64,000 nucleotides of DNA from the NCBI GenBank assembly GCA_965248055.1, contig CBDFIJ010000004.1:3232001-3296000 (forward strand), in the 5' to 3' direction. Both the position numbers and the translations under genes were made by a program. Below, one piece after another: positions 47,522 through 63,996 of the stretch (the stretch's first letter is position 1; every line of letters begins with the position of its first letter). The notes under the pieces are model-generated. The model did not search any database and was not told the origin of the DNA. It saw nothing but the letters and a program-made list of their open reading frames with translations. Source of the DNA: Candidatus Multivoradales bacterium. GTDB taxonomy: Bacteria > Acidobacteriota > Thermoanaerobaculia > Multivoradales > JAHEKO01.

Positions 47522-48526
47522 TCAATGGTTAATAACGACATTTGGGAAGAGCTTTGTAGCGTCAAAGTCAGTGGCGTGTGTCCAGATTCCATGAATGGCG
47601 TGGAGTAGTTTTCTCATGATGGCGACAATCGCTTGCATGGGTTTTAGTCCTCGTTGTTGGAGACTGAGATAGAAACTTCGACAGTGAGGATTGGCCCTCG
47701 CAGCCGAGAGAGCGGGCATGTAGAGAGCCTGTCTAAGGCGTGAGTTTCCGGTCTTGGAGATTCTTCGTGGTTTGTTGACAGAGGAGCCGGATTCGACCGG
47801 TTTCGGATCGAGTCCGGCATGAGCGACCCATTGCCTAGGGGTGAGCTCTTTGGGCAGCACTGCGAGTTCGGCAAGAATCCGAGATGCGCTCTTGGGTCCG
47901 ATTCCCGGGATACTCAGCAGGAATTGATAACGTATCTTGAGTTTGGTCTGGTTGTTGATGAGTTTGAGTGCCTGTTTGTCGAGCCGATCGATTTCCCGAT
48001 TCAGTACAACGATTTGGCGATTAAGACTTTGGCTTACAGCTGCCGGAATCGTTCTAGAGGCAGATGCAGCATGGAGTCGGTTCTTCTCCTCTGTTCGTTG
48101 TTGAGTCAATGCCAGGATGCGGCGGGTGATGGACCTTAGGGCCAGTTCTTGGTCACCAGGTGGCTGGAACTCTTCAAACGGCATGCGTTGAGCAAACTGA
48201 CAAAGCATTTCCGCGTCGATGCGGTCGGTCTTGGCTCTTTTCATCAAAGCTTCAGCGAAACGGCGAGCAGCACGAGGGTTGGCAACCATGACCTCAACAC
48301 CTGTGGTTTTGCACAGAGTGAAGGTCAGATCTTGACCGTACACTCCGGTGGCTTCCAGGACCGCTTGAACGGGCCGTTCTTGTCTCTTGAGCCAAGCGGC
48401 CAGCTGGCGAATACCGGACGCAGTATTTGCAAACTGTCGCCTCTCAAGCTTGCCTGAGGCAAGCTTGAGACATAGCTCAAAGGACTTGGCGCTGACTTCG
48501 ATTCCGCAGGGCAGTGGCTTCTTCAT
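47522..48526 (-). CDS. IS110 DEDD recombinase
   Basis: GIEVS, LEATG, AKTDRIDA, SIPGIG, ESGSS, ISKTGNSRLRQALY, AIMRKLL; AAGGAG RBS before ATG at 48526. Confidence 0.93.
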   Translation of the reverse strand: MKKPLPCGIEVSAKSFELCLKLASGKLERRQFANTASGIRQLAAWLKRQERPVQAVLEATGVYGQDLTFTLCKTTGVEVMVANPRAARRFAEALMKRAKTDRIDAEMLCQFAQRMPFEEFQPPGDQELALRSITRRILALTQQRTEEKNRLHAASASRTIPAAVSQSLNRQIVVLNREIDRLDKQALKLINNQTKLKIRYQFLLSIPGIGPKSASRILAELAVLPKELTPRQWVAHAGLDPKPVESGSSVNKPRRISKTGNSRLRQALYMPALSAARANPHCRSFYLSLQQRGLKPMQAIVAIMRKLLHAIHGIWTHATDFDATKLFPNVVINH

Positions 48527-48539
48527 CGTTTTCTCCTTT

Positions 48540-48720
48540 CGGTTACACTGTCCCTTCGGCTCCCTGACCTTGGGTAACTCTCGCACCGACCTTGTGAATG
48601 CAGGCTCTAGGGCCTCAGATTCTCTCCGGCGTTCGAGAGGTAAGGCAGGGAGCTGATCTACGTACAGGCTCAGGGCCTAAGGGGCGGGACAGCTTCCCTG
48701 CCGAAGAGACTCATCTCCAC
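48540..48720 (-). ncRNA. Predicted bridge RNA with target- and donor-binding loops
   Basis: Two stem-loops with internal loops; guides CCCGCCCCT/CGTAG match the target and AGAGAATCT/ACAAG match the element's circle junction. Confidence 0.85.
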
Positions 48721-48865
48721 AAACATACAAGGGGAGGGGTTTACCCCCTCCCGTCTTGGGATTCAGGCACACGCCAAAATGCTCCACCTACCCTGGTGAA
48801 ACATCACCTCCAACTGCGATAAGCTGAACCGGCCCGAAAGGGGCCCCGAGACGGGCGAAAGACCT

Positions 48866-49543
48866 ATGCGATCACCACTCAGTTTCTTCCAATCAGCAGT
48901 CGGCAAGAAGACCGTCATGGCGGTTACCGGCATCATGTTGTTCGGCTTTGTGCTCGGCCATATGGTGGGCAATCTCAAGCTCTACTTGGGCGCGGAAAGC
49001 CTCAACCACTACGCGGAATTCCTGCGTGAATTTGGCTATCCGCTGTTGCCGCACATGGCCTTTCTGTGGATTGCCCGTATTGGATTGTTGGCCGCGGTAG
49101 GACTGCACATTTGGTCCGCCTGGGCGGTGACCCGAATGAGCCGCGCCGCACGACCTCACAAATACCTGAAGCGCGAATCGGTGGCCGCGACCTATGCCTC
49201 GCGCACTATGCGCTGGGGTGGGGTGATCCTGATTCTTTTCATCATCTACCACCTGCTGCACTTGACGGTGGGCAACGTCCACCCGGATTTCGTCCACGGC
49301 GAGGTCTACCGCAATCTGATTACCAGCTTGAGCGTTCCTTGGGTGGCGGGCTTCTACATCTTGGCCAATATCTTCCTCGGCATGCACCTATACCACGGCC
49401 TGTGGAGCATGTTTCAGACTCTCGGCTGGTCCGTCGACAAGAACAATGACTGGCGCCGTAAATTTGCCGGTGCTTTCGCCCTACTGGTCACTCTTGGCAA
49501 CCTTTCATTTCCCATCGCGATTCTCACCGGACTGGTTTCATAA
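48866..49543 (+). CDS. sdhC: Succinate dehydrogenase cytochrome b subunit
   Basis: [27 protein letters not shown] heme histidines. Confidence 0.92.
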
Positions 49544-51471
49544 TGGCTTTCAACGGCACACTCGACCCGCAGGTACCCGACTATCCGATAGAGGAGATGT
49601 GGCGCCGCACTCGCTTTGACCTCAAGCTGGTCAACCCCGCCAACAAACGCAAGTTCAACATCATCGTCGTCGGCTCTGGCTTGGCCGGCGCTGCCGCCTC
49701 GGCGACCTTGGCGGAACTCGGCTATAACGTGCAGTGCTTCTGCTACCAAGACTCGCCACGCCGGGCTCATTCGATCGCCGCCCAAGGCGGCATCAATGCC
49801 TCCAAGAACTATCAAAACGATGGCGACTCGGTATGGCGGCTGTTCTACGACACCGTCAAAGGCGGTGACTTCCGCTCCCGCGAGGCCAACGTCTATCGCT
49901 TGGCTGAAGTCTCCGGCAACATCATTGACCAAGCGGTGGCCCAAGGCGTCCCCTTCGCTCGTGAATATGGCGGCGCGCTTGATAACCGCTCCTTCGGCGG
50001 CGCCCAGGTGTCGCGCACCTTCTACGCCCGCGGCCAAACCGGGCAACAACTGTTGCTCGGCGCCTATCAAGCTCTGGCACGGCAGATCGGCTTGGGCAAA
50101 GTCGAGATGCACACCCGCACCGAGATGCTCGACGTTATTACTCATGAAGGCCAAGCCTGCGGCATCGTCACCCGCGACATGGTGGGCGGCGAGATCCGTT
50201 CTTGGACCGCCGACGCGGTGGTGCTGGCCACCGGTGGCTACGCCAACGTTTTCTATCTCTCGACCAACGCCAAGGGCTGCAACGTCACCGCGGCTTGGCG
50301 CGCGCACCGTCGCGGCGCCCTGTTTGCCAACCCTTGTTATACCCAGATTCATCCCACCTGCATTCCCCAGGCGGGCGACTACCAGTCCAAGCTCACCTTG
50401 ATGAGTGAATCTTTAAGAAACGACGGTCGCATTTGGGTACCCAAGAACAAGGACGAAGACCGCAAACCAGTCGATATTCCGGAAGACCAGCGCGACTACT
50501 TCCTCGAACGCCGCTATCCGGCCTTCGGCAACCTGGTGCCCCGCGACGTCGCCTCCCGCGCCGCCAAGACCATCTGCGATGAAGGTCACGGTGTCGGCGC
50601 CAGTGGCCGCGGCGTCTACTTGGACTTTGCCGATGCCACCAACCGGCTCGGGCGCGACGCCATCGAAGATCGTTACGGCAACCTGTTTGACATGTACCAC
50701 GACATCACCGGTGAGGACCCGTACAGCTCGCCGATGCGCATCTACCCGGCACCGCACTACACCATGGGCGGCCTGTGGGTGGACTACAACCTGATGACCA
50801 CCGTGCCCGGCCTCTACGCCATCGGCGAATGCAACTTCTCAGATCACGGTGCCAATCGTCTGGGGGCTTCAGCACTGATGCAGGGGCTGGCCGACGGCTA
50901 CTTCGTACTGCCCAACACCATCGGCAACTATCTCTCTGAGCGCATGGGCGAAGAAGTGATCTCAACCGACCACGACGCCTGCAAGGCGGTCGAGGCCGAC
51001 GTCCGTGAACGCACCGAGCGCTTGCTCTCGGTCAACGGCAGCCGCTCGGTGGATTCCTTCCACCGCGAGCTGGGCAAGATCTGCTGGGACTTGATCGGCA
51101 TGTCCCGTGACAGTGAAGGCCTCAGAGAAGCCTTGGAAAAGATCCCCACTCTGCGCGAGGAGTACTGGCAAAACGTCAAAGTGCTGGGCAACAACCAGTC
51201 GTTCAACCAGGCCCTAGAAAATGCTGGACGCGTCGCCGACTTCTTTGAACTTGCCGAACTCATGGCACGCGACGCCTTAGACCGCGACGAATCCTGTGGC
51301 GCCCACCTGCGGTTGGAACACCAGACCCCCGGAGGCGAGGCTGAGCGCAACGACCAGGACTACTCCTACTCAGCCGCCTGGGAATACACCGGCCCCGGCA
51401 ACGAACCCAACCTGCACAAAGAACAGCTCGAATTCGAGAACGTACATCTGGCTAGCAGGAGCTACAAGTGA
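49543..51471 (+). CDS. sdhA: Succinate dehydrogenase/fumarate reductase flavoprotein
   Basis: [38 protein letters not shown]. Confidence 0.96.
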
Positions 51472-51493
51472 CTGTCGCTTGGGTCAAGCGACA

Positions 51494-51788
51494 GTCATCC
51501 CGAGCGGAGGCCCGAAGGGCCGTAGTCGAGGGATCTAGACTTTGCCCATCCACCGATAACCCCGTTGTCACCCAGAGCGGAGCCGCGAAGCGGCGCAGTC
51601 GAAGGATCTCGGTATTGCTCAACCTCATCATTTTGAGCGAGTCACCCCCTCCGTTATTCTCGCATAGGCGTGCCAGTAGAGCCTGCCCCGGCGGGGGGGG
51701 GGGTGTGAGTAGAGCCGGGGTTATCCTGAGCTCGCGCCCCTTTTGTCATCCCGAGCGTAGGTCCGTAGGACCGCAGTCGAGGGATCTC
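51494..51788 (+). repeat. Cluster of GTCATCC-hairpin-GYAGTCGARGGATCT direct repeats
   Basis: Copies at 51494-51536, 51567-51610, 51745-51788, plus degenerate half-copies. Confidence 0.85.
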
Positions 51789-51829
51789 AAAAGACCGATG
51801 CACCCCAGACCAGCCTTCATGAGAACCCC

Positions 51830-52558
51830 ATGCGCCTAACCCTCGAAATCTGGAGACAACAAAACGCTGACGCCCAGGGCGGCATCGTCCAGTACCAACT
51901 CAACGACGTCTCATCCGACATGTCGTTTCTGGAAATGCTGGACGTCCTAAACGAGCAACTCACCGAACGCGGCGAAGACCCGGTCGCCTTTGACCACGAC
52001 TGCCGCGAAGGCATCTGCGGCATGTGCGGCGTGATGATCAACGGCCAGGCCCACGGCCCGCTGCCCGAAATGACCACCTGCCAACTACATATGCGCCATT
52101 TCTCCGACGGCGACACCATCCGCATCGAGCCCTGGCGCTCCGCCGCCTTCCCGGTCGTGCGCGATCTAGTGGTCGATCGCGGTCCCTTTGATCGGATCAT
52201 CGAATCCGGCGGCTACATCTCCATCGGCACCGGTGCTGCCCCCGACGCCAACTTGATCCCGGTCCCCAAAGACATCGCCGACCAAGCCATGGACGCCGCC
52301 GAATGCATCGGCTGCGGCGCCTGCGTCGCCCAGTGCCCCAATGGCGCCGCCCAGCTCTTCACTGCTGCCAAGGTCTCCCATCTCGGCCTGCTACCCCAAG
52401 GCCAGCCCGAACGCTCTCGCCGAGTGCAGAGCATGGTCGAAACTATGGAGGAGTACTTCGGCTCGTGCTCGAATTACGGGGAGTGCGAGGCAGTGTGTCC
52501 GAAGGGGATTTCGCTGGAGTTTATTGCCAGGATGAATCGGGATTGGGTGCGGGGGTAG
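51830..52558 (+). CDS. sdhB: Succinate dehydrogenase iron-sulfur subunit
   Basis: [38 protein letters not shown]. Confidence 0.96.
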
Positions 52559-52755
52559 GTCGGAACCTGACTCGGAAGCGTGGAATGTCGGGCTACTTCC
52601 GAGCACCGCAAATCAGTCAGAAATACTTCCCCTCCGCTTGATAGCAGTATTCAACTGCGCCATACCTCGACGCGCTGCCTGTCGCGATCAGGCACCCACC
52701 TGTTTCGATGCGATACGATTGAAGCATCCGGGGACGGTGTTAAGAGGCTTTTCCA

Positions 52756-53070
52756 ATGTCACATGCCAAGACCAAGCAGGATGTCCTGCAACGACTTCGC
52801 GCGAATACACCGCGCATTCGTGCGTTGGGCGTGCTGCGCATCGGGCTTTTTGGTTCCTTCACGCGCGATCAACAGAATGAAGGAAGCGACGTCGACCTGA
52901 TCGTGGAATTCGAGCCGGAGCGCAAGAGTTTCGACTCGTTTATTCAACTTTCGTTTTTCCTGGAAGAGCTTCTTGGTAGACGGGTCGACCTCGTGACCAC
53001 TCAAGCGCTTAGCCCCTACATTGGTCCCCATATTCTTGCCGAGGCGGTCTATGCTGACCTCGCCGCTTGA
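52756..53070 (+). CDS. Minimal nucleotidyltransferase (MNT) antitoxin
   Basis: FGS-x10-DVD motif; [13 protein letters not shown]. Confidence 0.9.
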
Positions 53071-53422
53071 CTACCTACGCCATATCCGTGATGAGGCGAG
53101 TTATCTGCTGGATCGCTCCGGTAGCATGGGTAAGGAAGAGTTCTTGCGCGACGAGACGGTGAAACGCGCTTTCGTTCGGAGCATCGAAGTCATTGGCGAG
53201 GCCGCCAAGAAAGTTCCGGCAGAACTGAGAGAGCGGCACACCCAGATCGACTGGCGCGCCATGTCCGGCATGCGGGACCGTCTAATTCACGGCTATTTCG
53301 GTGTCGACTACGAGATCGTCTGGGACGTAGTGGCGAACAAGGTGCCGGAGCTTCATGAGTACATCAACACCATCCTGGAGGAAGGCTCGGACCTGCCGTC
53401 GGGGGAGGAGCGAGCGCCCTGA
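53051..53422 (+). CDS. HEPN (DUF86) ribonuclease toxin
   Basis: [19 protein letters not shown] (Rx4H), VWDVV; overlaps the MNT gene. Confidence 0.9.
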
Positions 53423-53425
53423 GAT

Positions 53426-53550
53426 TGGTCGAGACCATAGAGGAGTACTTCGGCTCCTGCACAAACTACGGCGAGTGCGACGCGGTGTGTCCGAAGGGGA
53501 TTGCTTTGGAGTTTATTGCCAGGATGAATCGGGATTGGGTGCGGGGGTAG
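53426..53550 (+). repeat. Orphan copy of the sdhB 3' end (125 bp)
   Basis: Aligns ungapped to 52434-52558; 13 substitutions by hand count. Confidence 0.95.
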
Positions 53551-53558
53551 GGGGTTAG

Positions 53559-53798
53559 GTGTCTCCCACCGTTCGGCGCATCGGACCGTACCGTTTCTTT
53601 TTCTACAGCAACGAAGGCACCGAGCCTTCACATATCCATGTTCAGCGCGATCATCGCGTGGCTAAGTTTCGGCTAGATCCGGTGCGATTGGCGCGTACCG
53701 GGCACTTTCCAGATCACGAAATTCGTGAGGCCGAGGCGTTAGTGCGAGATAATGAAGCCGAACTATTGGAGGCATGGCATGAGTTCTTCGGTCGTTGA
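53559..53798 (+). CDS. DUF4160-family protein
   Basis: MSPTV..GPYRFFFYSNE..EPSHIHV..AKF.L..AWHEFF. Confidence 0.85.
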   Translation: MSPTVRRIGPYRFFFYSNEGTEPSHIHVQRDHRVAKFRLDPVRLARTGHFPDHEIREAEALVRDNEAELLEAWHEFFGR

Positions 53799-54033
53799 GA
53801 AAATTGCCCTGGCGAGCAGGGTAGAAGTTACCGCAACCGATTTGCGGGTGAACTTGGTCGATGGGCGGCAGATTGTGGTGCCCCTCTCGTGGTTCCCACG
53901 ATTGGAGCAGGCGACGCCGGAAGCCAGGAAGAACTGGGAGTTGCTTGGCGGTGGCGAGGGAATTCACTGGCCGGATGCTGATGAGGATTTGAGTGTGGCA
54001 GGGTTGTTGGGTGGGTCGGTGGTTGCTGGATGA
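53779..54033 (+). CDS. DUF2442-family protein
   Basis: LVDGRQIVVPLSWFPRL..AT..GIHWPDADEDLSVAGLL; overlaps DUF4160. Confidence 0.85.
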   Translation: MSSSVVEKIALASRVEVTATDLRVNLVDGRQIVVPLSWFPRLEQATPEARKNWELLGGGEGIHWPDADEDLSVAGLLGGSVVAG

Positions 54034-54043
54034 GCCTAGCGAT

Positions 54044-54206
54044 CCAAGGCCAACCTGAACGCACTCGCCGGGTGCAAAACATGGTCGACACCATGGAGGA
54101 GTACTTCGGCTCCTGCTCGAACTACGGTGAGTGTGAGGCGGTGTGTCCGAAGGGGATTTCGCTGGAGTCTATTGCCCGGATGAATCGGGATTGGGTGCGG
54201 GGGTAG
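54044..54206 (+). repeat. Second orphan copy of the sdhB 3' end (163 bp)
   Basis: Aligns ungapped to 52396-52558; 15 substitutions, 11 synonymous by hand count. Confidence 0.95.
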
Positions 54207-54212
54207 GGGTAG

Positions 54213-54899
54213 ATGGCGGTCGCGTTCGACCGTGAGTTGGCGAGGCCAGTGTATGAAGATCTTGCCCACCTGCAAGAGAATTGGAACCAGCAGGCTACTG
54301 ACGCAGTTCTGCGTCGCGAGAGTACAGTTCTGCGGCGCTTGCTTGTTGACGGGCATTTGTCTCGCGTCGCGAGTAGCATCGGCATCAAGTATCGCCTCCA
54401 AGTAGGCTGTCTTTGTGAGTTCTATACAACGGAGCGGTTAAAGGGCTATGAATATTGGATGGCCCCTTATGTAAAGTACAAGGGCGCGGCAGTTCAAATG
54501 GCGTCTATACGGAACCGGGCGGTAACTGAAAATGAGCTCAAAATCGAGCATGAGGCTCGAAAGGCGTTGGCTGATAAGTCGAAGGCGATCAGCGTACCGA
54601 AGTACCTGCAGTTGCCAGCCATGGTTGTTGAGGGAATCATAGTTAGGCATCAAGGTGTAATTCAGTTTGTATGCAACAAGCTGGGCGGGGCACACTACGA
54701 TCGGAGTCGTAAGAGGCAACGAGATCAACAATTTGTTCTTCTGGACAAGGTTCGGTCCGGCGATTTTCAGGTGCTGGGAAAGGATGCAGTGTACTTACAG
54801 TTGTTAGGTGTCGGCCAGGCAATCGCTACGAATCAAATCACTTATCGGGTGATGTCCCGGCTGAGGAGTATGGGAATCGAACAACCTAGCAAGGATTGA
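54213..54899 (+). CDS. Hypothetical protein (lower GC)
   Basis: 228-aa ORF starting 6 nt after the sdhB-end copy; contains NKLGGAHYD. Confidence 0.65.
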   Translation: MAVAFDRELARPVYEDLAHLQENWNQQATDAVLRRESTVLRRLLVDGHLSRVASSIGIKYRLQVGCLCEFYTTERLKGYEYWMAPYVKYKGAAVQMASIRNRAVTENELKIEHEARKALADKSKAISVPKYLQLPAMVVEGIIVRHQGVIQFVCNKLGGAHYDRSRKRQRDQQFVLLDKVRSGDFQVLGKDAVYLQLLGVGQAIATNQITYRVMSRLRSMGIEQPSKD

Positions 54900-55005
54900 C
54901 TATATCGAGTAGATGTCAGCCGAAATTAGGTGCCACCCGAATAAATGAGATTTGAACGGTTGTACAAAGCATCGTGAAACTCGGACCTCTGGGAATAGGT
55001 GCCAC

Positions 55006-55395
55006 TTATTAGGCGGCGTTATGTCAAGGGGTACATCTTTTCTTTCCGGGTGGGGGGCGTCCCGGTATTGAGTGATCAAAGAAAGGCAGCGCTAGTTTTT
55101 TGGGTCTCATTAAGTAGGAGTCGATGACGCTCCAGCCACTCATCAGGATCTAGGTAGTCGAGTTATCAGTCCTCGGTACCCCAGGCAGTATCGTGCCCCA
55201 GAAACCCGTTGGTCTCGATTCCGTTTCCATGAGAAGGGATTCAGTCGCATGGTTTTCGAGCTAGTAGCTCGATCCAGCCCCTGGTTGGTTGACGGAGTCG
55301 TGCGCCACCGGTGCAAGTAAGAGAGATCGAGGCCGCTTCCACTCAGATGATTGGTTATTAACACAGCATCTTTCTGGTTGGCGGCCTCGATCTCA
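55006..55395 (-). ncRNA. Structured downstream non-coding end of IS110, candidate seek/bridge RNA
   Basis: Stem GAGATCGAGGCCGC...GCGGCCTCGATCTC right after the stop; outward-facing TTGACA near 55022-55027. Confidence 0.5.
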
Positions 55396-56412
55396 TTAGC
55401 CAAACAGCCTTTCGGGCTGGTAAGGCGCTTGATCCCTCATCATGAAGTAAGCAGCGCGTGCGAGCTTGTGGGCAAGAGCCCTGGTGGCGAGAAGGGAGCC
55501 GGATCGAGATCGTTTCTTGTCATGCCATTTGCGTGCTTTGGGCTGCCAACGGACGGCAAAGTGTGCGGCTTCGTGAAATGCCCAGGACAGGTAGGGGTTG
55601 CCGTTCTTGCGCAGTCCATGTCCTTTGATCCGTTGATTGGAGTTTCTCTCGGCTTTGACCAGTCGGCAGTAGGAGACGTAGTTACCCACTTTGGGGAAGC
55701 GATTGATATCTCCGGTCTCATATTGGATGGTCGCAGCAAGAGTCGCTCCGATGCCAGGGATGGAGGTGAGCAAGCGGTAGCTGTCTTCCAGAACTGCCTG
55801 CTCGCTAATGGTCTTTTCGATTATCTCGATTTGTTCATCGAAGGCCTCGATCATCGCCAGCGAAGCGATCATCGAGAGTTGGTCATTTGGATCGTCGATC
55901 CAGTTGCTGATGTCTTTGACGGTGACCTTGTTCAAGGCGTTGGCAGACAGTCGCTTGGCTGTGGTGCGTTCAAGGACATTGCGCAGGCTGAGTTTATTGG
56001 CCGAGCGCTGGCGAACCAGCTGAGTGCGTCGACGCAGAAGATCCCGTACCGCTCGTTTTTCCGGTGGGTAGATCCACCCCGTGGGCAAGATCCCGAGTCT
56101 CAGCATGTGGGCCAGCCACCGGGCGTCGGTTTTGTCGTCGGTATGCTTGAGACCTTGATACTGCTGGGCTGCCAGAGTGTTGACCAAATGCACCTTGTAG
56201 CCCGAGTCCTTAAGACCATCGACCAGCCAATACCAGTTGAAGGTCGATTCAACCGCAATGCCCTCCATCTTTCCAGCATAAGGTTCCAGGCCCGAGCGGA
56301 TGGATTCAAGGTCGTTGCGGTAACGCTTTGCCTTAACCATTTGGTCAGACTCGTCAATAACCGCCAAATAGCTGTTGTTTGCGTGAAGGTCGATCCCGGC
56401 GTACAGTCCCAT
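55396..56412 (-). CDS. IS110-family transposase (IS1111-like layout)
   Basis: GIDLH, VESTFNWYW, HTDDKTDA, SIPGIG, KNGNPYLSWAF, ALAHKLARA. Confidence 0.93.
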   Translation of the reverse strand: MGLYAGIDLHANNSYLAVIDESDQMVKAKRYRNDLESIRSGLEPYAGKMEGIAVESTFNWYWLVDGLKDSGYKVHLVNTLAAQQYQGLKHTDDKTDARWLAHMLRLGILPTGWIYPPEKRAVRDLLRRRTQLVRQRSANKLSLRNVLERTTAKRLSANALNKVTVKDISNWIDDPNDQLSMIASLAMIEAFDEQIEIIEKTISEQAVLEDSYRLLTSIPGIGATLAATIQYETGDINRFPKVGNYVSYCRLVKAERNSNQRIKGHGLRKNGNPYLSWAFHEAAHFAVRWQPKARKWHDKKRSRSGSLLATRALAHKLARAAYFMMRDQAPYQPERLFG

Positions 56413-56430
56413 TGGGTGCTCCTTTGTGGT

Positions 56431-57794
56431 GGATGTGTCCCGAATCTTGTGGAAATTGGTATTTGGCGTAGCGTCTCCCGCGGTCAGGTTTAGTTGATTC
56501 TAGTCCTACGCGGCTGCTTGACGGTCAAGCATCCGGTACAAGTCTTGGTAGCCGTTGATGCGGTGCATCCTGATCTGACCGAAAGCGACGAGTCCCCAGA
56601 GCAAGGTAACACCCGCTGCCTCAGTCGAGAATGAGCCTTGGGTCTTGGTACGGCGCCGAAACTCACGGTTGAGATTCTCCAGCGCGTTGGTGGTCCTTGT
56701 GGATCGCCACAATGATCTCGGTAAATCGTCGAAAGTGATCAGTTCCATCCCAGCCTCTTGGAAGCTCCTGGCTACTGCGGGCACCAGCTTGGACCACTTG
56801 GTAACAAAGATTGAATAACTCTCTCGGGCCTCCAGGGCATCTTGGGCTCGCAGCACTTGATCCCAGTCTCGCTTGAGCTCACCATGAGCATGCTTAGGGC
56901 AATGCTTCTTCAGGTTTTCCCACTTGTGCTGGATACAACGCTGGACTTTGGCCTCTGGCCAAGCCCTGACTCCTACCGCCAAACCCTTGTGGCCGTCTGA
57001 GACCAGGAGATGCGGTGCTTTCAAGCCCCTGCGTTTAAGATCTTCAATCAACCACTTCCAGTGACTGCCTGCCTCACTGGCTGCTAACCGTAGAGCTACC
57101 AGGACTTTGGTGCCATCTTCTCTTACCCCCAGAGCAGCCAACACCGGAGCTGACACCACGCGCCGAGCAAGCCGCACTTTCAAGTGAAAGCCATCAAGAA
57201 ACAAGATCGGGTAGCTTTCCTCAGACAGGCCTCGCTCACTCCAACGGGCAAAGTGCTCCTTCAAACGCGATACCACCCGAGACACAGCGCTCTTGGATAG
57301 ATGCTCCCTGCCCAGCAGTGGAGTCAAGGCCTTCTTGATCCGACGGCTGTTGGCCCCTGCTAGGTAGCAGCCGAGAATCGCTTCATCCACCTCTCGGGTG
57401 CGCCGCTGGTAGCGCTCAACAAGATGGCTTTGAAACTCCTCAGTGGATCCATCTTGGCCTACTACCCGACCACGAGGAATTCGCAGTTGCCGGGATCCGT
57501 ATCGGGTCGTGATCGTCCGCTCTTGTTTGCCGTTGCGATAGCCCGAGCGCTCACCTGAACGCTCGTACGCAACACAACCCAATGCGTCAGCAAGCTCTCC
57601 TTCTAGAACTATTTCGATTGCTTCCCGGATACGGTGCTGAAGCTTTGACTGGATATCTTGCTGGAAACGAGATGATTCCGGTCTCTGATTGGTACTCTTG
57701 TCCATGGCGTAGCCTCCTTTCGCCTACTCGGCGATGGGTTTTGACTACCGGAGGTTACGCCTTTCTCAATTTCCACAACAATCGGGACGGATCC
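56431..57794 (-). mobile_element. IS256-family element with 8-bp target duplication
   Basis: 28-bp imperfect IRs (24/28) at 56431 and ending 57794; TTTGTGGT duplicated at 56423-30 and 57795-802. Confidence 0.93.
56506..57705 (-). CDS. IS256 (Mutator-type) transposase
   Basis: YRNG, LFLDG, LVSDGHKGL, QRCIQH, TTNALENLNREFRRRTK. Confidence 0.93.
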   Translation of the reverse strand: MDKSTNQRPESSRFQQDIQSKLQHRIREAIEIVLEGELADALGCVAYERSGERSGYRNGKQERTITTRYGSRQLRIPRGRVVGQDGSTEEFQSHLVERYQRRTREVDEAILGCYLAGANSRRIKKALTPLLGREHLSKSAVSRVVSRLKEHFARWSERGLSEESYPILFLDGFHLKVRLARRVVSAPVLAALGVREDGTKVLVALRLAASEAGSHWKWLIEDLKRRGLKAPHLLVSDGHKGLAVGVRAWPEAKVQRCIQHKWENLKKHCPKHAHGELKRDWDQVLRAQDALEARESYSIFVTKWSKLVPAVARSFQEAGMELITFDDLPRSLWRSTRTTNALENLNREFRRRTKTQGSFSTEAAGVTLLWGLVAFGQIRMHRINGYQDLYRMLDRQAAA

Positions 57795-57934
57795 TTTGTG
57801 GTTGGCAGTGGATACTTCGGTAAGCCAAAGCTTGTCACTGCGGAGGAGCACCTATCTGAGGACTCCCCTTTCTGCCAACATGAGTGAGACACTTCCCCGT
57901 TCAACAATTAATGTAGGGCGGACGGAGGTAAATC

Positions 57935-58420
57935 ATGTTGAAGATAGATACAAATCGAAGTCTGGTTGGTTCGAGGGAGAGATCCTCGGCCTTACCGGAG
58001 GGGATCGAGGAGCGTAGCGACGAGAGCCCGGTAGGTGAGGCCGTCGCGCTCGACCCGGAGACCCTGGAGAAGCCCTATCGACGGCGTTTTAGCGCCGCGT
58101 ACAAGCTTGGCATTCTGGAGCAGGTTGATGCCTGCACCGCAGCGGGTGAAGTAGGAAGGTTGCTGCGTCGCGAAGGGCTTTACTCCTCACATTTGGCAAG
58201 CTGGCGCAAAGCGCGGCGCGAAGGCTCCCTGGCTGGACTTTCCAAGCGTCGCGGGCGCAAGGCAAAGCCGGTCAATCCCCTGGCCAAGAAAGTCCAGCAG
58301 CTTGAGCGAGAGAATGCGCGCCTTAGCGGTGAGCTTGAGAAAGCTCACTTGATTCTATATGTCCAGGGAAAAGTTGCCGGGCTGCTGGGATTGAGCTTCG
58401 ACGACGGGAAAAGTTCCTGA
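57935..58420 (+). CDS. IS3-family OrfA (HTH plus leucine zipper)
   Basis: RRRFSAAYKL..LLRREGLYSSHLASWR..LERENARL. Confidence 0.85.
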   Translation: MLKIDTNRSLVGSRERSSALPEGIEERSDESPVGEAVALDPETLEKPYRRRFSAAYKLGILEQVDACTAAGEVGRLLRREGLYSSHLASWRKARREGSLAGLSKRRGRKAKPVNPLAKKVQQLERENARLSGELEKAHLILYVQGKVAGLLGLSFDDGKSS

Positions 58421-59424
58421 TGGCCGCAGTAGAGCTATCGAGCACGGTCGGTGTGAAGCCGGCGTGGCAAGCTCTCGGGGTTGCACGGGCCACTTACTAC
58501 CGTCGCCAGAAGCCATCCAATGGGCGAAAGCAGCCCCGACCAACTCCCGCCCGAGCGCTATCGAGCTATGAACGCGACCGAGTACGCGGACTTCTATGCT
58601 CGCCACGATTCGTCGATCGAGCCCCCGCTGAGGTGGTTGCCACCTTGCTCGATGAAGGCACTTATCATTGCTCTGAACGCACGATGTATCGCATTCTGGC
58701 TGCCGACAAAGCAACCAAGGAGCGACGCAACCAATTGCGCCGTCCACGCTATGCCAAGCCGGAGCTGGTGGCGACAGAGCCCAATCAAGTTTGGTCCTGG
58801 GATATCACTAAACTCAAAGGCCCAAAGACTTGGACTTGGTATTACCTCTACGTCTTACTCGATATCTTCAGCCGCTATGTGGTGGGCTGGATGGTGGCAT
58901 CAAGAGAAAGCAGTGCCCTGGCCAAGCGATTGATTCAAGATAGTTGTATCAAGCAGGGCACTGCCCCAGGAGAGCTCATCCTGCATAGTGACCGAGGGTC
59001 ACCAATGACCGCCAAAGGCACTGCCCAGCTCCTGGCTCAGCTCGGCGTCACTCGATCACTTTCCCGACCCAAGGTCCCGGACGACAATCCCTTTTCAGAA
59101 GCCCAGTTTAAGACCCTGAAATACCATCCGGGATTCCCCAGTCGTTTCGGCTCCATCGAAGACGCGCTCAGCTTTTGCCGACCTTTCTTTACTTGGTACA
59201 ACACCGAGCATCGCCACAGCGGGCTCTCGATGATGACCCCGGAAGATGTCCACTACGGACGCACTGTGCAGGTCCTCGACCACAGAACCAGTGTTCTGGC
59301 TGATGTTTTTCTCAATAAACCCGAGCGCTTCGTACGCGGCTGCCCGAAGCCAAAACCATTACCCGACGCTGTCTGGATCAACCCACCAGATCGGGATCGA
59401 TCATCGCTTGGCGATGCTCACTAA
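58420..59424 (+). CDS. IS3-family OrfB DDE integrase
   Basis: PNQVWSWDIT, HSDRG, DNPFSEAQFKTLK, YNTEHRHS. Confidence 0.9.
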   Translation: MAAVELSSTVGVKPAWQALGVARATYYRRQKPSNGRKQPRPTPARALSSYERDRVRGLLCSPRFVDRAPAEVVATLLDEGTYHCSERTMYRILAADKATKERRNQLRRPRYAKPELVATEPNQVWSWDITKLKGPKTWTWYYLYVLLDIFSRYVVGWMVASRESSALAKRLIQDSCIKQGTAPGELILHSDRGSPMTAKGTAQLLAQLGVTRSLSRPKVPDDNPFSEAQFKTLKYHPGFPSRFGSIEDALSFCRPFFTWYNTEHRHSGLSMMTPEDVHYGRTVQVLDHRTSVLADVFLNKPERFVRGCPKPKPLPDAVWINPPDRDRSSLGDAH

Positions 59425-59464
59425 TTAAAGATGACGTGTGTCTCATTATCGTTGGCAGGTTCCG

Positions 59465-59760
59465 CTATCGCCTTCTGCCGCTCGTTTTTCCGCTGGTACA
59501 ACACCCAGCACCGTCACGCCGGCATCGCCATGCTGACACCCGAAGATGTCCACTACGGCAAGGCCGACCACAAGCTCAAGATCCGTCAACTGGCCCTTGA
59601 CCAAGCTTGGCGAAACAACCCACAGCGATTTGTCCGTGGAAGACCGACCGTTCAGCTATTACCGAGGGCCGTCTGGATCAACCCACCCAAACATCAGCGC
59701 ACCAAGGAGGTTGTCCCGATTCACTAATTAATTCTGCCAACTGTCTCAAAGTTGTTGACA
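59465..59760 (+). pseudogene. 3' remnant of a related IS3 element with its right end
   Basis: FCRSFFRWYNTQHRHAGIAMLTPEDVHYG..VWINPP paralogous to the OrfB end; ends TGTCTCAAAGTTGTTGACA. Confidence 0.85.
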
Positions 59761-59767
59761 GGTTCCG

Positions 59768-60839
59768 CTTTTGGACGCTGACTTGGGCCCGTCTGATCTT
59801 TGGATCGTCGTCACGAAGCCATCGGTGAGGGTGAACTCGGGTTCGGGCAGGCCCGCGGCAACGCATTTCCGGATCATGTCGCGAGTGCCGGTGCCCATGC
59901 GCTCGATGTATTTGGTGAGGTAGAGCGGTTCGGCGAGCAGCGGGTTACCGGGAATGGAACTGTGAGGCTGGCGCAGCTTGTCTAGGGTGAGCGCTGCGGG
60001 GAGAGTGCCGGGATTCCAGACCTCCAGCCGGTCTGTGAAGAGCATGACCTGGACGCTGCCATTGCTGTTGTAGTCGCGGTGGGCGACGGCGTTGACAATG
60101 GCTTCGGCGACCACATCACGCGGAATTTCGTATTCGACGGGCGCCTGCGGTCCTTGCACCCGGGTGCCGACGCTGAGGTTGATCTTGGACATCACGAAGT
60201 CGATAGCCTGATCCACCAGCTCGAAGGCAGTGCCCTTGTAGACCTGGTGGGAGGGAATGGGCTTGGCGGAAGGGGAAAGTTGCGCGCCTTGCGGGCGCGG
60301 GGCACGAAGCGGGCGATGTGCTCTGGATCGAGGTCGTCGAGGGAGGCCTTGCGAGCCGCGCGGGCGTCCCAAGGGGCACGGTTGAGACTACCGGTTTCCT
60401 CAAGGTAGTCGACGAGACTGGCATAGACGTCGGGCAGCAGGTCCGTGGATTGCTGGAAGCGTCGGCGCACGAGTTGGTTGCCAACTTCACGAACCAGCGT
60501 CTGCATTTCCGGGTGCTTGTTTTCGTCACTAGCGCCTTTGACGAAGATCAGTCGGGTCTTGCCGAGGTCGGTGGCATGGTTGAACTCTCGGTGGGTAGGC
60601 GAGAGCCCGTCCGGGTTCTCCCATCCATACTCATCGCCGAACAGGCCGAGGTAAACATCGCACTTTGCGACTTGATCGAGGTAGACCTCGTCTGGCTGAC
60701 GGTCTGAAGCCGGAACATCGCGCTCAAACAAGAATGCCTCGAAGAAACGTCGTAGCAACGGATCGTTGGAGAGATACTCTGCCAGTGCTTTCCGCTCTTC
60801 GGCGAACTCCTTCTGCACACTGCTGATGAAGATCTTCAT
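59768..60839 (-). pseudogene. DUF4062 + HATPase/RecG-C-like protein, split and 3'-truncated
   Basis: MKIFISSVQKEF (DUF4062-like); frame change near 60270; EAIVNAVAHRDY, IERMGTG; runs into the IS3 remnant. Confidence 0.75.
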
Positions 60840-62400
60840 GCGGTGATACCGATCTTTTCCAGAATCTTCCGCAGGTCCTTGTCGGTCTTCTGGGCCTCGC
60901 CCTCAATCGCATTCAGTTCCGCGACGATCTCCACAATCGGCCGATAGGTCTCGGCGTCGGCTGTGTGGATGTAGCGGCTGGGGGATATGTTGTAGTCGGT
61001 TTTTTTCAGCTTTGCATGATCGACGATGCGGCTGAGTTTTTCTTCTTCCTTCCAGTTGGCGAGGACATCGGCGATGCGGTCGATCCCCTCGGGCGGGAGG
61101 AAGTTCTTGGGGTCTCCCTTTTTGAAGACCTGACTGGCGTTGACGAGCAGGACCTTACCTGCCCGAGTCTTGGGCTTGTCCCGGTTGAGAAAGAGGACGA
61201 TGCCCGGGGCGGGAGTGTTGTAGAACAGGTTCTCGGGCAGGTAGAGGACGCTCTCGATGAGGTCGTGGTCGACGAACCACTGGCGGACGGTTTTTCCTTG
61301 TCGGTATTCGCATTACCCGAACCGCGGGAGGCGGCGCCGGTGTCGAGCACCACGGCGGCGCGGCCCTCGGGCTTGAGGCTGGCGTGTATGTGTTGCACCC
61401 ATCCCCAGTCGGCCGAGGATTTACCAGGGAAGCCGGCCCCGGCGGGGAAGCGGTCTAGTTCGTCAGCGTCGTAGTCTTTCTCAGAGTACTCCTTCTGGTT
61501 CCACATCGGGTTGGCGACTACGCGGTCGAAGGTGCGCAGTTTGCCGCGCCTGCGGAACTTGGGATTCTTGAAGGTGTCGCCGATCTCGATCTGACCCTCC
61601 ATGTCGTGGATGATCATGTTCATGTTGGCCATGGCCCAGGTTTCGGGGATGTATTCTTGCCCGTAGAGTTTGAGCGGGGCGAAAGTACGCTTCTTCTGGC
61701 CCTTGGTCTTCGATTCCATGGCGATCTCGCACTTGATAAGCAGACCGCCGGAACCGCAGCATGGGTCGTAGATATCCATGCCGGGCTCGGGAGCCAGCAC
61801 CTTAGCCATGATCTCGCCGACTTCGGGTGGGGTATAGAACTCGCCGGCGCTCCTGCCGCTGCCTTCAGCAAATTTGCGGATCAAGTATTCGTAGCTCTTG
61901 CCGATGATGTCGGCTTCCACGTCGTCGAGTCCCAGGCGCTTGGTGCTGATGGCCTCGATGAGGTTGGAGAGGCGGTCGTCGTCGAGATCACGCTGGCCGT
62001 GGGTAGTGGCGTTGAAGTCAACGCGGTCGATGATGCCCTGCAGCAGCGGGTTTTGCTTGGCAATCGCCCGCATGTGGCTGGTGACGCCTTCGCCGATCTT
62101 GTCTGAGAGCTTACGGATGACCGACCAAACGGGCTGCTCAGGGTCCTTCGGTACCAGTGGCAGATAAAAGCGGACCAGCTTGTGGTCGGCTTTGGCGAGT
62201 AGGAAGGCCTTGTCGCGCGAACCGACCTCGGCGGCGATGCGGTTTATCTCGTCGTCAAAAACGTCGCACAGGCGCTTGGTGAAGACAAGCGGCAGGATGT
62301 AGTCCTTGTACTTGGGCGCGTCCTTAGCCCCGCGGATAGAGCAGGCGGCATCCCAGATCCAGGATTCGAGGGATTTGACCTTGTCGCTGCTCTTGCCCAT
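60836..62400 (-). pseudogene. hsdM: Type I restriction-modification methyltransferase with one frameshift
   Basis: AGEFYTP, YDPCCGSGG, VANPMW; after KEK at the A-run near 61290 the HsdM tail (LPENLFYNT..YNISPSRYI) continues in another frame to a stop at 60836. Confidence 0.85.
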
Positions 62401-62470: not shown

Positions 62471-63298
62471 TTAGGCTACCGGAGGAGCGTCAGCTTCTTC
62501 CAGCGCCTTGCCGAATCTGGGTCTCCACCAGAGTTCGATCGGTCCCAGCAGGACATACGCCGAGCCAATCACGAACAGGGTGACGGAGGGTTTGGCGAGA
62601 ATGGCGACGAAGCAGATTGCTGCGAAGGTGAGGAAGCGATTGCTGGATTGGAGCGAGATCTCTTTTCCGGTGCGATAGGGGATGCCGCTGACCATCAGCA
62701 GGGCCAGGGTGACCAGGCCGAGACCGATGACATAGGCGGGTACGTTGGTTTCGATTCCCGACTCTTGCAGGGTGCCAGCAAACCAAGCGGTGGTGGCAAC
62801 CATTCCGGCTGCGGCTGGGCTGGGGAGTCCTTGAAAGCGATTCTTGTAGCGACCGGCGGAGACGTTGAAGCGCGCCAAGCGCAGGCCGGCGCAGACCACG
62901 TAGGCAAACGCCACCACCCAGCCGCTCCAGCCCAAGTCGCTCAGCCTGCCGAAGTGAAAGGTAAGCAAGGCAGGGGCAACGCCGAAGGACACGGTGTCGG
63001 CGACTGAGTCGTACTCCGCTCCGAAGCGGGTTGCGACTCCCTGGGCCCGCGCCACTCGGCCATCCAGCAGGTCACAAGCCATAGCGAGCCAAATCGCGAT
63101 CACCGCCTGATCGAGGTCGCCCTGGGCTGAACGCACGACGGCAAAGAATCCCGCCGCCAGATTGGTGGTGGTTAATATGTGGGGGATCAGCGTCGCTGGG
63201 TTACGTCGTGGGTGTTCGGATCGATCATGAGGCGTTGCGGGTTTGATATCAGCTCGCTTGGTGCCCTCAGTACCAGCCCGGTGCGAAATCAAAGTCAT
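62471..63298 (-). CDS. pssA: CDP-diacylglycerol--serine O-phosphatidyltransferase
   Basis: DLLDGRVAR..FGAEYDSVADTVSFGVAP, LRLARFN, FQGLPSP. Confidence 0.92.
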   Translation of the reverse strand: MTLISHRAGTEGTKRADIKPATPHDRSEHPRRNPATLIPHILTTTNLAAGFFAVVRSAQGDLDQAVIAIWLAMACDLLDGRVARAQGVATRFGAEYDSVADTVSFGVAPALLTFHFGRLSDLGWSGWVVAFAYVVCAGLRLARFNVSAGRYKNRFQGLPSPAAAGMVATTAWFAGTLQESGIETNVPAYVIGLGLVTLALLMVSGIPYRTGKEISLQSSNRFLTFAAICFVAILAKPSVTLFVIGSAYVLLGPIELWWRPRFGKALEEADAPPVA

Positions 63299-63996
63299 GA
63301 ATCTTGCGCAGGCATTTTCGCCAAAATTGTGCTGCCACCGCGTACCCGTCGTCCTGGGGTGACCAGCGGCTCGGCTTCAGTCGGCAACACCACGTCGGTT
63401 CGCGAGCCAAAGCGAATCAGGCCGTAGCGTTGGCCGCGCTCTAGCCACTCTCCTACCTGGGGATGGCAGACGATGCGCCGGGCGATCAGTCCGGTAATCT
63501 GCACCACCTGAAAGCGCACTCCAGTGTCGGTGGTCAAAGTCATCGCGCAGCGCACATTGTCGGTCAGCGCTCGACGATCGAACGCTGGACGTTTGCGAGT
63601 ACCGGCTCTCTGGATCGATTCCACCCGACCGCTCAAGGGCACGCGGTTGACGTGGACATTGAAGACCGAAAGGAAGATACCGATGCGCAGCCCCGGGGTA
63701 CCGTTTTCGTCAACCGTCTCGCTGACCTCGATGATGCGGCCATCGGCTGGGGCGATCACGTCTTTTGGGTCGCCCGGAATGGTTCGCTGCGGGTTGCGAA
63801 AAAAGGCTAGAAAGAAGACCGCCAATCCACCGATTATTAGGGCAGGCCAGGTCCATCCAGCCCAGGCAGCCAGTGTGGCCAGCAAAGCGGCCGCGGCTGC
63901 CGGAATCCAGGCGTCCGGCACGATTCGCGCGGTCGGCCGTTCGCGAAAATGAGGGTTGCCAGGAGAGGCCGGCCGTGAGTCAAGGGTTTGCGACAT
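63295..63996 (-). CDS. psd: Phosphatidylserine decarboxylase proenzyme
   Basis: FFRNPQR, APADG, FLSVFNVHVNR, GLIARRI, RFGSR. Confidence 0.93.
   Translation of the reverse strand: MSQTLDSRPASPGNPHFRERPTARIVPDAWIPAAAAALLATLAAWAGWTWPALIIGGLAVFFLAFFRNPQRTIPGDPKDVIAPADGRIIEVSETVDENGTPGLRIGIFLSVFNVHVNRVPLSGRVESIQRAGTRKRPAFDRRALTDNVRCAMTLTTDTGVRFQVVQITGLIARRIVCHPQVGEWLERGQRYGLIRFGSRTDVVLPTEAEPLVTPGRRVRGGSTILAKMPAQDS

Follow-up and report, generated by a model that had tools for sequence, protein, structure and literature searches.

The window analysed here is a 64,000-nucleotide (nt) stretch of a Candidatus Multivoradales genome (assembly GCA_965248055.1, contig CBDFIJ010000004.1, positions 3,232,001 to 3,296,000 of the forward strand). 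It contains sdhB, the iron-sulfur (Fe-S) subunit gene of the sdh operon, and directly behind it an array in which copies of the gene's own 3' end (referred to as tails) alternate with small groups of other genes (referred to as cargo). The order is sdhB, MntA-HepT, a 126-nt sdhB end, DUF4160-DUF2442, a 164-nt sdhB end and an orphan open reading frame (ORF). A first-pass annotation made from the sequence alone had read the same order, and repeats, ORFs and Pfam agree with it. The elements of the array are as follows.

51830-52558, + strand: sdhB, Fe-S subunit, intact (Pfam Fer2_3 1.4e-23, Fer4_8 4e-10)
52396-52559, + strand: resident sdhB tail, the reference copy (repeat search, whole-genome DNA search)
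52756-53070, + strand: MntA-like nucleotidyltransferase antitoxin, cargo unit 1 (Pfam NTP_transf_2 49.2 bits; PADLOC PDC-S09 1e-33)
53021-53422, + strand: HepT-like RNase toxin, cargo unit 1 (Pfam HepT-like 98.3 bits)
53426-53551, + strand: displaced sdhB tail, copy 2, 126 nt, 90% identity (repeat search, alignment, genome DNA search)
53559-53798, + strand: DUF4160, cargo unit 2 (Pfam 64.9 bits)
53752-54033, + strand: DUF2442, cargo unit 2 (Pfam 77.8 bits)
54044-54207, + strand: displaced sdhB tail, copy 3, 164 nt, 91% identity (repeat search, alignment, genome DNA search)
54213-54899, + strand: orphan ORF, 228 amino acids (aa), lower G+C of 0.48-0.54, no family

All three tails align without gaps. 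The alignment bears out the first-pass description of the copies as ungapped, about 90% identical and still carrying the Fe-S cysteines and the stop codon. The cysteines of the C-x5-C-x3-C-P pattern are retained in copies 2 and 3, and the last 29 nt together with the stop codon are identical across the three tails. A 32-nt tail probe found three matches, against none in 100 shuffles. The start-to-start distances of the tails are 992 and 656 nt. Identical runs measure 7 and 9 nt at the left boundaries, which open with the blocks TGGTCGA and CCAAGGCCA (7-9 bases), and 29-45 nt at the right end.

The MntA and HepT genes overlap by 50 nt, and both Pfam matches lie above the cut-off. The NCBIfam equivalog models for MntA and HepT stay below theirs (46.1 and 41.3, against 60). 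By these profiles, the pair is predicted to be a family member of the type VII toxin-antitoxin systems, not an equivalog. DUF4160-DUF2442 is probably a toxin-antitoxin pair; this unit also has a weak NCBIfam match to DhiT (24.3 bits, against a cut-off of 100). The orphan ORF has no match in Pfam, NCBIfam or PADLOC, and in Atlas it gave only weak leads to viral hypothetical proteins, with recognition below threshold. No paralogue of the cargo occurs elsewhere in the genome.

The cargo fits closely between the tails. Copy 2 starts 3 nt after the HepT stop (53422 to 53426) and copy 3 starts 10 nt after the DUF2442 stop (54033 to 54044), while DUF4160 begins 8 nt behind the stop of copy 2 (53550 to 53559) and the orphan ORF 6 nt behind that of copy 3 (54206 to 54213). 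All four distances are those given when the junctions were first called gene-tight, but MntA starts 197 nt after the resident sdhB stop, and the description holds for two of the three tail-to-cargo junctions. A G-run in the tail is placed like a ribosome-binding site ahead of two cargo starts. All cargo lies on the + strand; between the units, two weak promoter-like sites were seen where 1.8 would be expected, and none of the + strand terminators was convincing. The cargo may use sdh operon transcription. The repeat search found no REP copies between the units, and no Rfam family reached the gathering score in 48000-58000.

The layout was compared with Logan contigs from four runs (X1-X4) of one sample, probably the source sample of the genome itself. 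The Logan unitigs span 51800-52544 (sdhB into tail 1), 52530-53536 (the end of tail 1, MntA-HepT and into copy 2), 53524-54207 (the end of copy 2, DUF4160-DUF2442 and the whole of copy 3) and 54180-55000 and beyond, and they break only at shared 31-mers. In that order, their depths are 31.3, 29.8, 30.1 and 28.5 in X2, 13.4, 12.9, 12.9 and 12.5 in X3, and about 68, 70, 70 and 71.5 in X4. Depth doubles at the shared 45-mer and 32-mer. About 69% of run X1 was read, and there zero depth is found in four of 30 depth bins (between 53619 and 54153), with two others close to zero. Alternative haplotypes would sum to the sdhB depth, which the observed depths do not, so the locus is not a haplotype mix. 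With unitigs crossing the junctions at equal depth, a chimera of strain haplotypes, a danger named in the first-pass annotation itself, is ruled out for practical purposes. No joined forms lacking a unit were seen in the Logan contigs, which cannot show rare forms or circles.

From sdhB up to the first housekeeping gene, no ORF was found to encode a recombinase. Genome-wide, there are seven PF00589 (tyrosine recombinase) and six PF00239 (serine recombinase) matches, none of them in the window, and the nearest PF00589 match lies about 81 kb off on a circular contig and about 700 kb off otherwise. An IntI-type tyrosine recombinase beside the array is absent. Single-strand DNA folds of the three tails on both strands gave z-scores of -1.32 to +0.72 against shuffles, with no attC-like fold, and the search for inverted repeats returned nothing beyond weak 20-nt matches. 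Repeat, Pfam, recombinase and fold searches thus all agree with the original observation that integrase, inverted repeat and attC are lacking. An integron reading was rejected, there being neither an attC-like fold nor IntI. One feature of target-regenerating islands is present, namely direct repeats that consist of a regenerated target end and a displaced fragment.

Gene-end repeats elsewhere in the genome and in relatives

The first-pass annotation had also looked ahead to other core genes followed by their own repeated 3' ends, and this genome holds such genes. In a genome self-comparison, the 3' end of an ORF of at least 150 aa recurred within 40 kb downstream in 25 rows. Five genes in repeat-dense or tandem regions and one shadow ORF were set aside. 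About 12 loci remain, sdhB included, in which a gene's own 3' end is repeated 0.3-8 kb downstream around foreign genes. The segment C4:1380440-1403199 and contig C3 are repeat-dense, with many repeats of 150-1000 nt at 70-100% identity, and were excluded from the locus count.

Six loci were examined by Pfam (24 proteins). Their genes encode a TPR protein, an aldo-keto reductase, a Rieske oxygenase, an amidohydrolase, an outer-membrane protein and an aldehyde dehydrogenase. By Pfam, a tyrosine integrase is present at none of the six; one locus has a broken small resolvase and one has insertion sequence (IS) fragments. The cargo includes Fic, an AAA_21 ATPase (Pfam AbiEii-toxin family), DUF6119 and IS fragments. 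At the TPR locus (C4:86166-93564), the gene end plus about 130 nt with a terminator-like hairpin occurs in three copies, and Fic, metallo-beta-lactamase-fold and AAA_21 ATPase genes lie between them. As at sdhB, the right repeat boundary of this locus is fixed and the left one is variable. The same holds more widely. In the repeats of eight gene-tail loci, the right boundary coincides with a stop codon or with the point where a terminator (hairpin) closes, the left boundary varies without a common motif, and no clear microhomology is found at the joints. These features speak for the part of the first-pass proposal that preferred homology-anchored recombination over a fixed crossover.

The genome also carries two classical islands, at tRNA-Thr and tRNA-SeC (C4:321837-329762 and C4:2576758-2602789). 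Each has its integrase beside the att site, and the repeats are 65-68 nt long at 98.5% identity, compared with 65-500 nt at 80-96% for the gene-tail repeats. The gene-tail loci and the tRNA islands differ in appearance. We also notice a large serine recombinase in the tRNA-Thr island.

A sister species (G001), the only congener in our comparisons, provides an empty site for one of these loci. At the outer-membrane-protein locus (C4:2630959-2635289) of the genome under study (G000), the tail duplication is 447 nt and the insert is a 432-aa gene without a family. In G001, the outer-membrane-protein gene directly adjoins its downstream neighbor, and the left and right G001 matches overlap by 420 nt, which corresponds to the repeated tail. 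The 432-aa gene itself lies elsewhere in G001 (C1:1562247-1563564), at 86% identity versus 70-73% for the flanks. The displaced outer-membrane-protein copy has a 4-nt deletion and a stop codon. Near the 432-aa gene of G001, there is a 133-nt repeat pair.

Behind sdhB, G001 has a single tail followed by 11 kb of genes without homologues in G000, including, as read from translations, a MazF-like pair. Since the two species carry different genes at this place, the position behind sdhB is variable in both.

A fourth copy of the sdhB end sits 95 kb away (C4:3188800-3189015, minus strand). It is 80% identical, has two frameshifts, and fuses a stretch of the sdhB body (about 52019-52060) directly to the tail, which amounts to an internal deletion. 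This copy forms one end of a 3.07-kb insertion with four ORFs, one of them weakly QueC-like (425 aa), and the insertion splits the convergent genes of a peptidase S51 and a short-chain dehydrogenase (SDR). G001 is again empty here, its peptidase S51 and SDR genes being about 190 nt apart. An inversion origin of the fourth copy was rejected: the comparison with G001 reveals a plain 3.07-kb insertion at this place, and GC skew in the region keeps its direction. The fourth copy is best read as a donor fragment that started inside sdhB, ran into downstream cargo and was captured at an unrelated site. As the insertion ends in an sdhB piece, an sdhB end and its downstream cargo would have arrived as one fragment. 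This decayed piece at the tip of the insertion accords with the first-pass proposal that sdhB tails are carried together with cargo.

The closest named relatives by sdhB are uncultured Thermoanaerobaculia (Acidobacteriota), represented by metagenome-assembled genomes (MAGs). Among 300 genomes of the order, 234 match the C-terminal part of sdhB, and 12 besides G000 match twice. Five of the double-match genomes were examined. G072, from another family, has a true downstream copy (233 nt, 80% identity, 5262 nt downstream of sdhB), and its insert holds a ParE-type pair directly after sdhB, a GT87-type membrane protein, a metallophosphatase and three ORFs without a family. G114 and G290 have fragments on other contigs. 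The double matches of G099 and G077 were rejected as tail copies, being second sdhB-like genes instead. In G020, sdhB ends a few dozen bases short of the contig end, and a 3' sdhB fragment lies near the end of a second contig, beside core genes. We then have 80 further related loci, 66 of them with at least 2 kb downstream, and these yielded one clear tail copy: in L090, 98 nt of the tail recur 1.85 kb downstream at 92% identity, and one 505-aa gene occupies the interval. In L098 only a 36-nt tail piece was seen. A scan of metagenome contigs with a conserved tail 20-mer gave no matches, and no related populations were found there.

An integrase inside the insertion beside an att site is absent here, in G072 and in L090. 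No related integrase-bearing element was found at the sdhB end in G000, G001, G072 or L090, and contig breaks limit the search in G020, G114 and G290. Larger integrase-bearing islands in relatives, which the first-pass annotation had named as a finding that would refute it, were likewise not found in G001, G072 or L090.

The same scar occurs at about 12 genes and is sporadic at sdhB in relatives (one clear case in 66 loci, plus G072 and G020), so sdhB does not appear to be a dedicated site. From these comparisons, sdhB is an occasional target rather than a special one, and the integron-like system dedicated to sdhB that was first proposed is not upheld.

Substitutions, codon usage and surroundings of the sdh operon

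Between the resident tail and copy 2 (126 nt), there are nine synonymous and five non-synonymous differences, and between the resident tail and copy 3 (165 nt), 11 synonymous and six non-synonymous. The resident tail and G001 differ by 11 synonymous and no non-synonymous changes over the last 126 nt. The synonymous excess reported in the first-pass annotation is thus present, but it is weaker than the 11 of 15 stated there for the longer copy. When changes are polarised with G001, eight of the 15 on the copies' own branches are synonymous, versus a neutral expectation of 23% (P = 0.011, computed without a transition-bias term), and the changes that separate the resident tail from copy 3 divide 7:6 between the two. 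Copies 2 and 3 have no indels and no internal stops. These counts suggest that the copies changed mainly while they served as working gene ends and were somewhat relaxed later, most clearly copy 2, and they support the earlier view of once-working alleles rather than merely decaying duplicates. Over the last 126 nt, tail 1 and G001 differ at 11 sites, copy 3 and G001 at 10, and tail 1 and copy 3 at nine. With one congener, the tails form a star; the differences for the tail tree foreseen in the first-pass annotation could be counted, but neither donor nor arrival order can be read from it.

The features around the array are given below.

47522-48586: IS110-type element, upstream of the sdh operon
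48866-49543, + strand: sdhC, cytochrome b subunit (Pfam Sdh_cyt)
49543-51471, + strand: sdhA, flavoprotein (91% identity to the sdhA of G001 by tblastn)
51494-51787, + strand: three REP-like repeats of 43 nt each (repeat search, 81-88% identity)
55396-56412, - strand: IS110-type element (Pfam)
56506-57705, - strand: IS256-type element (Pfam)
57935-59424, + strand: IS3-type element (read from ORF translations, no family scan)
59431-59727: IS3 orfB fragment (read from ORF translations, no family scan)
59746-62400, - strand: degraded defence genes (PADLOC, NCBIfam)
62471-63996: first housekeeping-looking genes, read as pssA and psd from their translations

The sdhB protein has 95% aa identity to that of G001. 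The sdhA-sdhB spacer is unusually long (358 nt) and is filled by the three REP-like repeats; the 13-nt head of the REP-like unit occurs 47 times in the genome (at most one mismatch), and the same repeat type sits directly 3' of the sdhB stop in G001. One of the defence remnants is a 208-aa fragment matching domains of pAgo/SIR2-associated proteins, and the second encodes a type I methyltransferase whose C-terminus is aberrant, the C-terminal third looking out of frame. IS elements lie on both sides of the sdh operon and array. A composite transposon formed by the flanking IS110 pair seems unlikely, since the transposases (354 and 338 aa) look unrelated by eye, a comparison made without alignment.

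The codon usage of sdhB changes sharply near its end, and that of the resident tail looks foreign. At third positions, the sdhB body has C 0.63 and G 0.17, compared with C 0.26 and G 0.48 in the last 54 codons. The C3-G3 difference is +0.46 for the body and -0.22 for the last 54 codons, the latter below the first percentile. Among 1777 long ORFs, sdhA has the highest value (+0.32), which the sdhB body exceeds. Both sequences (49543-52393) thus have an extreme bias to C-ending codons although the + strand at the locus, presumably the leading strand, is G-rich. The bias ends abruptly about 140-165 nt ahead of the sdhB stop in both species of the genus, and the switch is absent from 18 other loci of the family. 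The codon usage of the resident tail is echoed by both displaced copies and by most of the cargo. The tail looks as if it has drifted with the mutational skew, without the codon selection acting on the rest of the operon. Such usage would fit an sdhB end that copies from a pool, either displaced or imported ones, have replaced again and again.

Origin of the array

We lean, with modest confidence, towards an integrase-independent and homology-anchored addition of donor fragments, each made of a gene end plus cargo, which would leave a displacement array. The DNA directly behind conserved genes would differ between relatives in this lineage, and a fragment from a related genome that spans the sdhB end and its downstream DNA would enter the cell. 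Its sdhB part would engage the resident gene end by ordinary homologous recombination, and its non-homologous far end would be joined by end-joining, or the fragment would circularise beforehand and enter by a single crossover. The product would be an sdhB with a partly or wholly donor tail, the donor cargo, and the old tail from an arbitrary 5' point onwards. Repeated rounds would stack units, with the displaced tails as punctuation. Once formed, a tail-cargo-tail unit might be passed on when ordinary double crossovers fall within its tails. Tails could equally recombine with each other and so remove a unit; as such a loss would be punished where the cargo is a toxin-antitoxin pair, pairs of this kind may be over-represented in what survives. 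The genome encodes Ku and ComEC, which makes this route plausible. In favour of the route we also count the lack of a recombinase, the recurrence of the scar across the genome, the contrast with the two tRNA islands, the repeat boundaries, the empty site in G001, the ectopic sdhB insertion, the copies in other lineages, the foreign-looking resident tail, the synonymous excess of the displaced copies and the equal read depth of the units.

The units are indeed additions stacked behind sdhB, as the first-pass annotation had it. They look like pieces of the variable region behind sdhB in relatives, not like the self-contained mobile modules it had envisaged. We speculate that the tight junctions at sdhB may stem from repeated transfer rounds that trimmed the units. 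Seen together with the other scarred genes, the array would be one well-preserved case of a broader integrase-free gene addition behind core genes in this lineage. A further idea, which we hold only tentatively and think less probable than not, is that in these Acidobacteriota the 3' ends of ordinary genes serve as portable homology arms for integrase-free capture through RecA and end-joining, by which accessory genes of neighbours would be placed and stacked behind core genes. Successive rounds would whittle favoured cargo, toxin-antitoxin pairs for example, down to cassette-like units moving with the tail from one relative to another, and the tail itself would belong to a mobile pool. If that reading holds, a tail evolving within the mobile pool would account for the foreign codon usage at the end of a highly biased gene in both species.

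Several points weigh against homology-anchored addition. Random fragment ends do not predict gene-tight junctions such as those 3 and 10 nt after the cargo stops, and the other loci are looser at their junctions (95-229 nt, from coordinates). Recombination over 125-163 nt at 90% identity is inefficient, and the longest identical run is about 45 nt. The 7-9-nt identical blocks on the left would suffice for the overlap region of a tyrosine recombinase, and an integrase that was later lost or that acts in trans is conceivable. The two copies at the outer-membrane-protein locus each share 69% identity with G001, and donor origin and in-place duplication are indistinguishable there. G001 is possibly no true outgroup for the polarised counts. 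The read evidence comes from one sample only, and so from no independent population, and no donor was found with MntA-HepT or DUF4160-DUF2442 directly behind sdhB.

Some of these points would be accommodated by decayed tandem islands, in which an integrase targeting the sdhB 3' end brought in a replacement tail serially and the integrases were later deleted, leaving CIME-like stubs. A regenerated target with a displaced fragment is the textbook sign of integrase islands in the accessible part of one account (PMC4383910), and tandem accretion and integrase-less CIMEs are known from the accessible part of another (PMC5704250). The short identical blocks at the left boundaries fit, the IS elements and degraded defence genes just downstream make deletion plausible, and a broken resolvase is kept at one other locus. 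We nevertheless judge this origin unlikely. None of the three fully assembled sdhB insertions (G000, G072, L090) holds an integrase, nor do the six other loci hold a tyrosine integrase, while both tRNA islands keep theirs. A separate specificity would have had to be lost for each of about 12 target genes, random deletion does not leave units of 992 and 656 bp in which the cargo is flush with the repeats, and the right repeat boundaries track gene or terminator ends, not a motif. Decidedly less probable is a duplication of the recipient's gene end in place (by staggered breaks, template switching or REP rearrangement) with divergence afterwards. The equidistance of the outer-membrane-protein copies from G001, with the deletion and stop in the displaced one, would suit it, as would the REP-like repeats in the sdhA-sdhB spacer and directly after sdhB in G001. 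It does not sit well with the synonymous excess on the copies' branches (8/15 versus 23% expected, P = 0.011), with the 7:6 split between the resident tail and copy 3, in which there is no pseudogene bias, or with copies 2 and 3 free of indels and stops. No REP copies lie between the units, and the ectopic sdhB piece cannot be a target duplication.

A dedicated cassette system, with a trans-acting recombinase that recognises the last 30 or so bases of sdhB and moves tail plus cargo, has some attraction: the last 29 nt and the stop are identical in the three copies, cargo starts 6-8 nt after two of them behind a G-run placed like a ribosome-binding site, and the cargo has one orientation with no terminators between units. 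We find it very improbable all the same, given six strands without an attC-like fold (z -1.3 to +0.7), no integrase nearby, no motif common to sdhB and the other loci, and the rarity of the pattern at sdhB among relatives. An assembly chimera of strain haplotypes differing behind sdhB is hardly credible. The genome is seemingly metagenome-assembled, as its relatives are all MAGs, and such repeats can mislead assemblers; yet every unit stands at sdhB depth in three runs of differing depth, each cargo-to-tail junction lies inside one unitig, and independent assemblies (G072, L090) have the same pattern.

Related systems and implications

In working terms, the orphan arrays of Rhs/CDI are the closest system. 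In Salmonella, 522 bp of homology at 95% between main gene and orphan permits recombination, and the accessible part of that paper reads Rhs/CDI arrays as displacement by newly acquired modules (Koskiniemi 2014, PMC3967940). As far as the same part goes, the likeness extends to a conserved gene segment preceding each displaced module and to displaced pieces that are 5'-truncated and lack a start of their own, whereas the variable part there is the gene's own C-terminal toxin domain with an immunity gene, and here it consists of separate unrelated genes. Also unlike Rhs/CDI, the sdhB gene end is conserved and working, the host gene is a respiratory housekeeping gene, and many unrelated genes are affected.

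In form, target-regenerating integrase islands are closest. The accessible parts of two accounts describe the same regenerated end and displaced allelic fragment as direct repeats, with serial stacking (PMC4383910, PMC5704250). The array differs from such islands in having no integrase in the assembled cases and units under 1 kb; its repeats are long, diverged and variable in length, and many targets occur in one genome. Phage 21 and e14 integrate at icd and carry a replacement tail. Integron arrays share the compact, co-oriented and promoterless-looking units behind a fixed point, with a site-like repeat each; in contrast to them, there is no IntI and no attC fold, and the repeats are pieces of a working gene.

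In homology-facilitated illegitimate recombination during natural transformation, foreign DNA is trapped beside a homology and its other end is joined illegitimately; the experiments mainly involved loss of recipient DNA. The route proposed for the array would be of this kind, with a one-sided homology anchor. The structure of the array fits such a process, and the ectopic fragment supports linked arrival. We know of no description of stacked natural products with duplicated gene ends from this process, and within the term sets tried, no published account of integrase-free gene-tail duplication stacks was found.

To our knowledge, most accessory-gene hotspots between core genes lack an integrase, and DNA entry at such hotspots is usually credited to double crossovers in both flanks. 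The scar of the present array, an allelic and 5'-truncated copy of the upstream gene end, rather suggests that one-sided homology was followed by an illegitimate join or by one crossover. Little changes for sdhB itself: its enzyme is intact, and the last 40-55 codons appear exchangeable. If the process is general, genomes could readily be searched for the scar as a sign that genes were gained without an integrase. Acquisitions might then be dated and put in order, donors traced and the role of end-joining proteins in horizontal gain tested, and the process would explain why toxin-antitoxin pairs pile up behind housekeeping genes.

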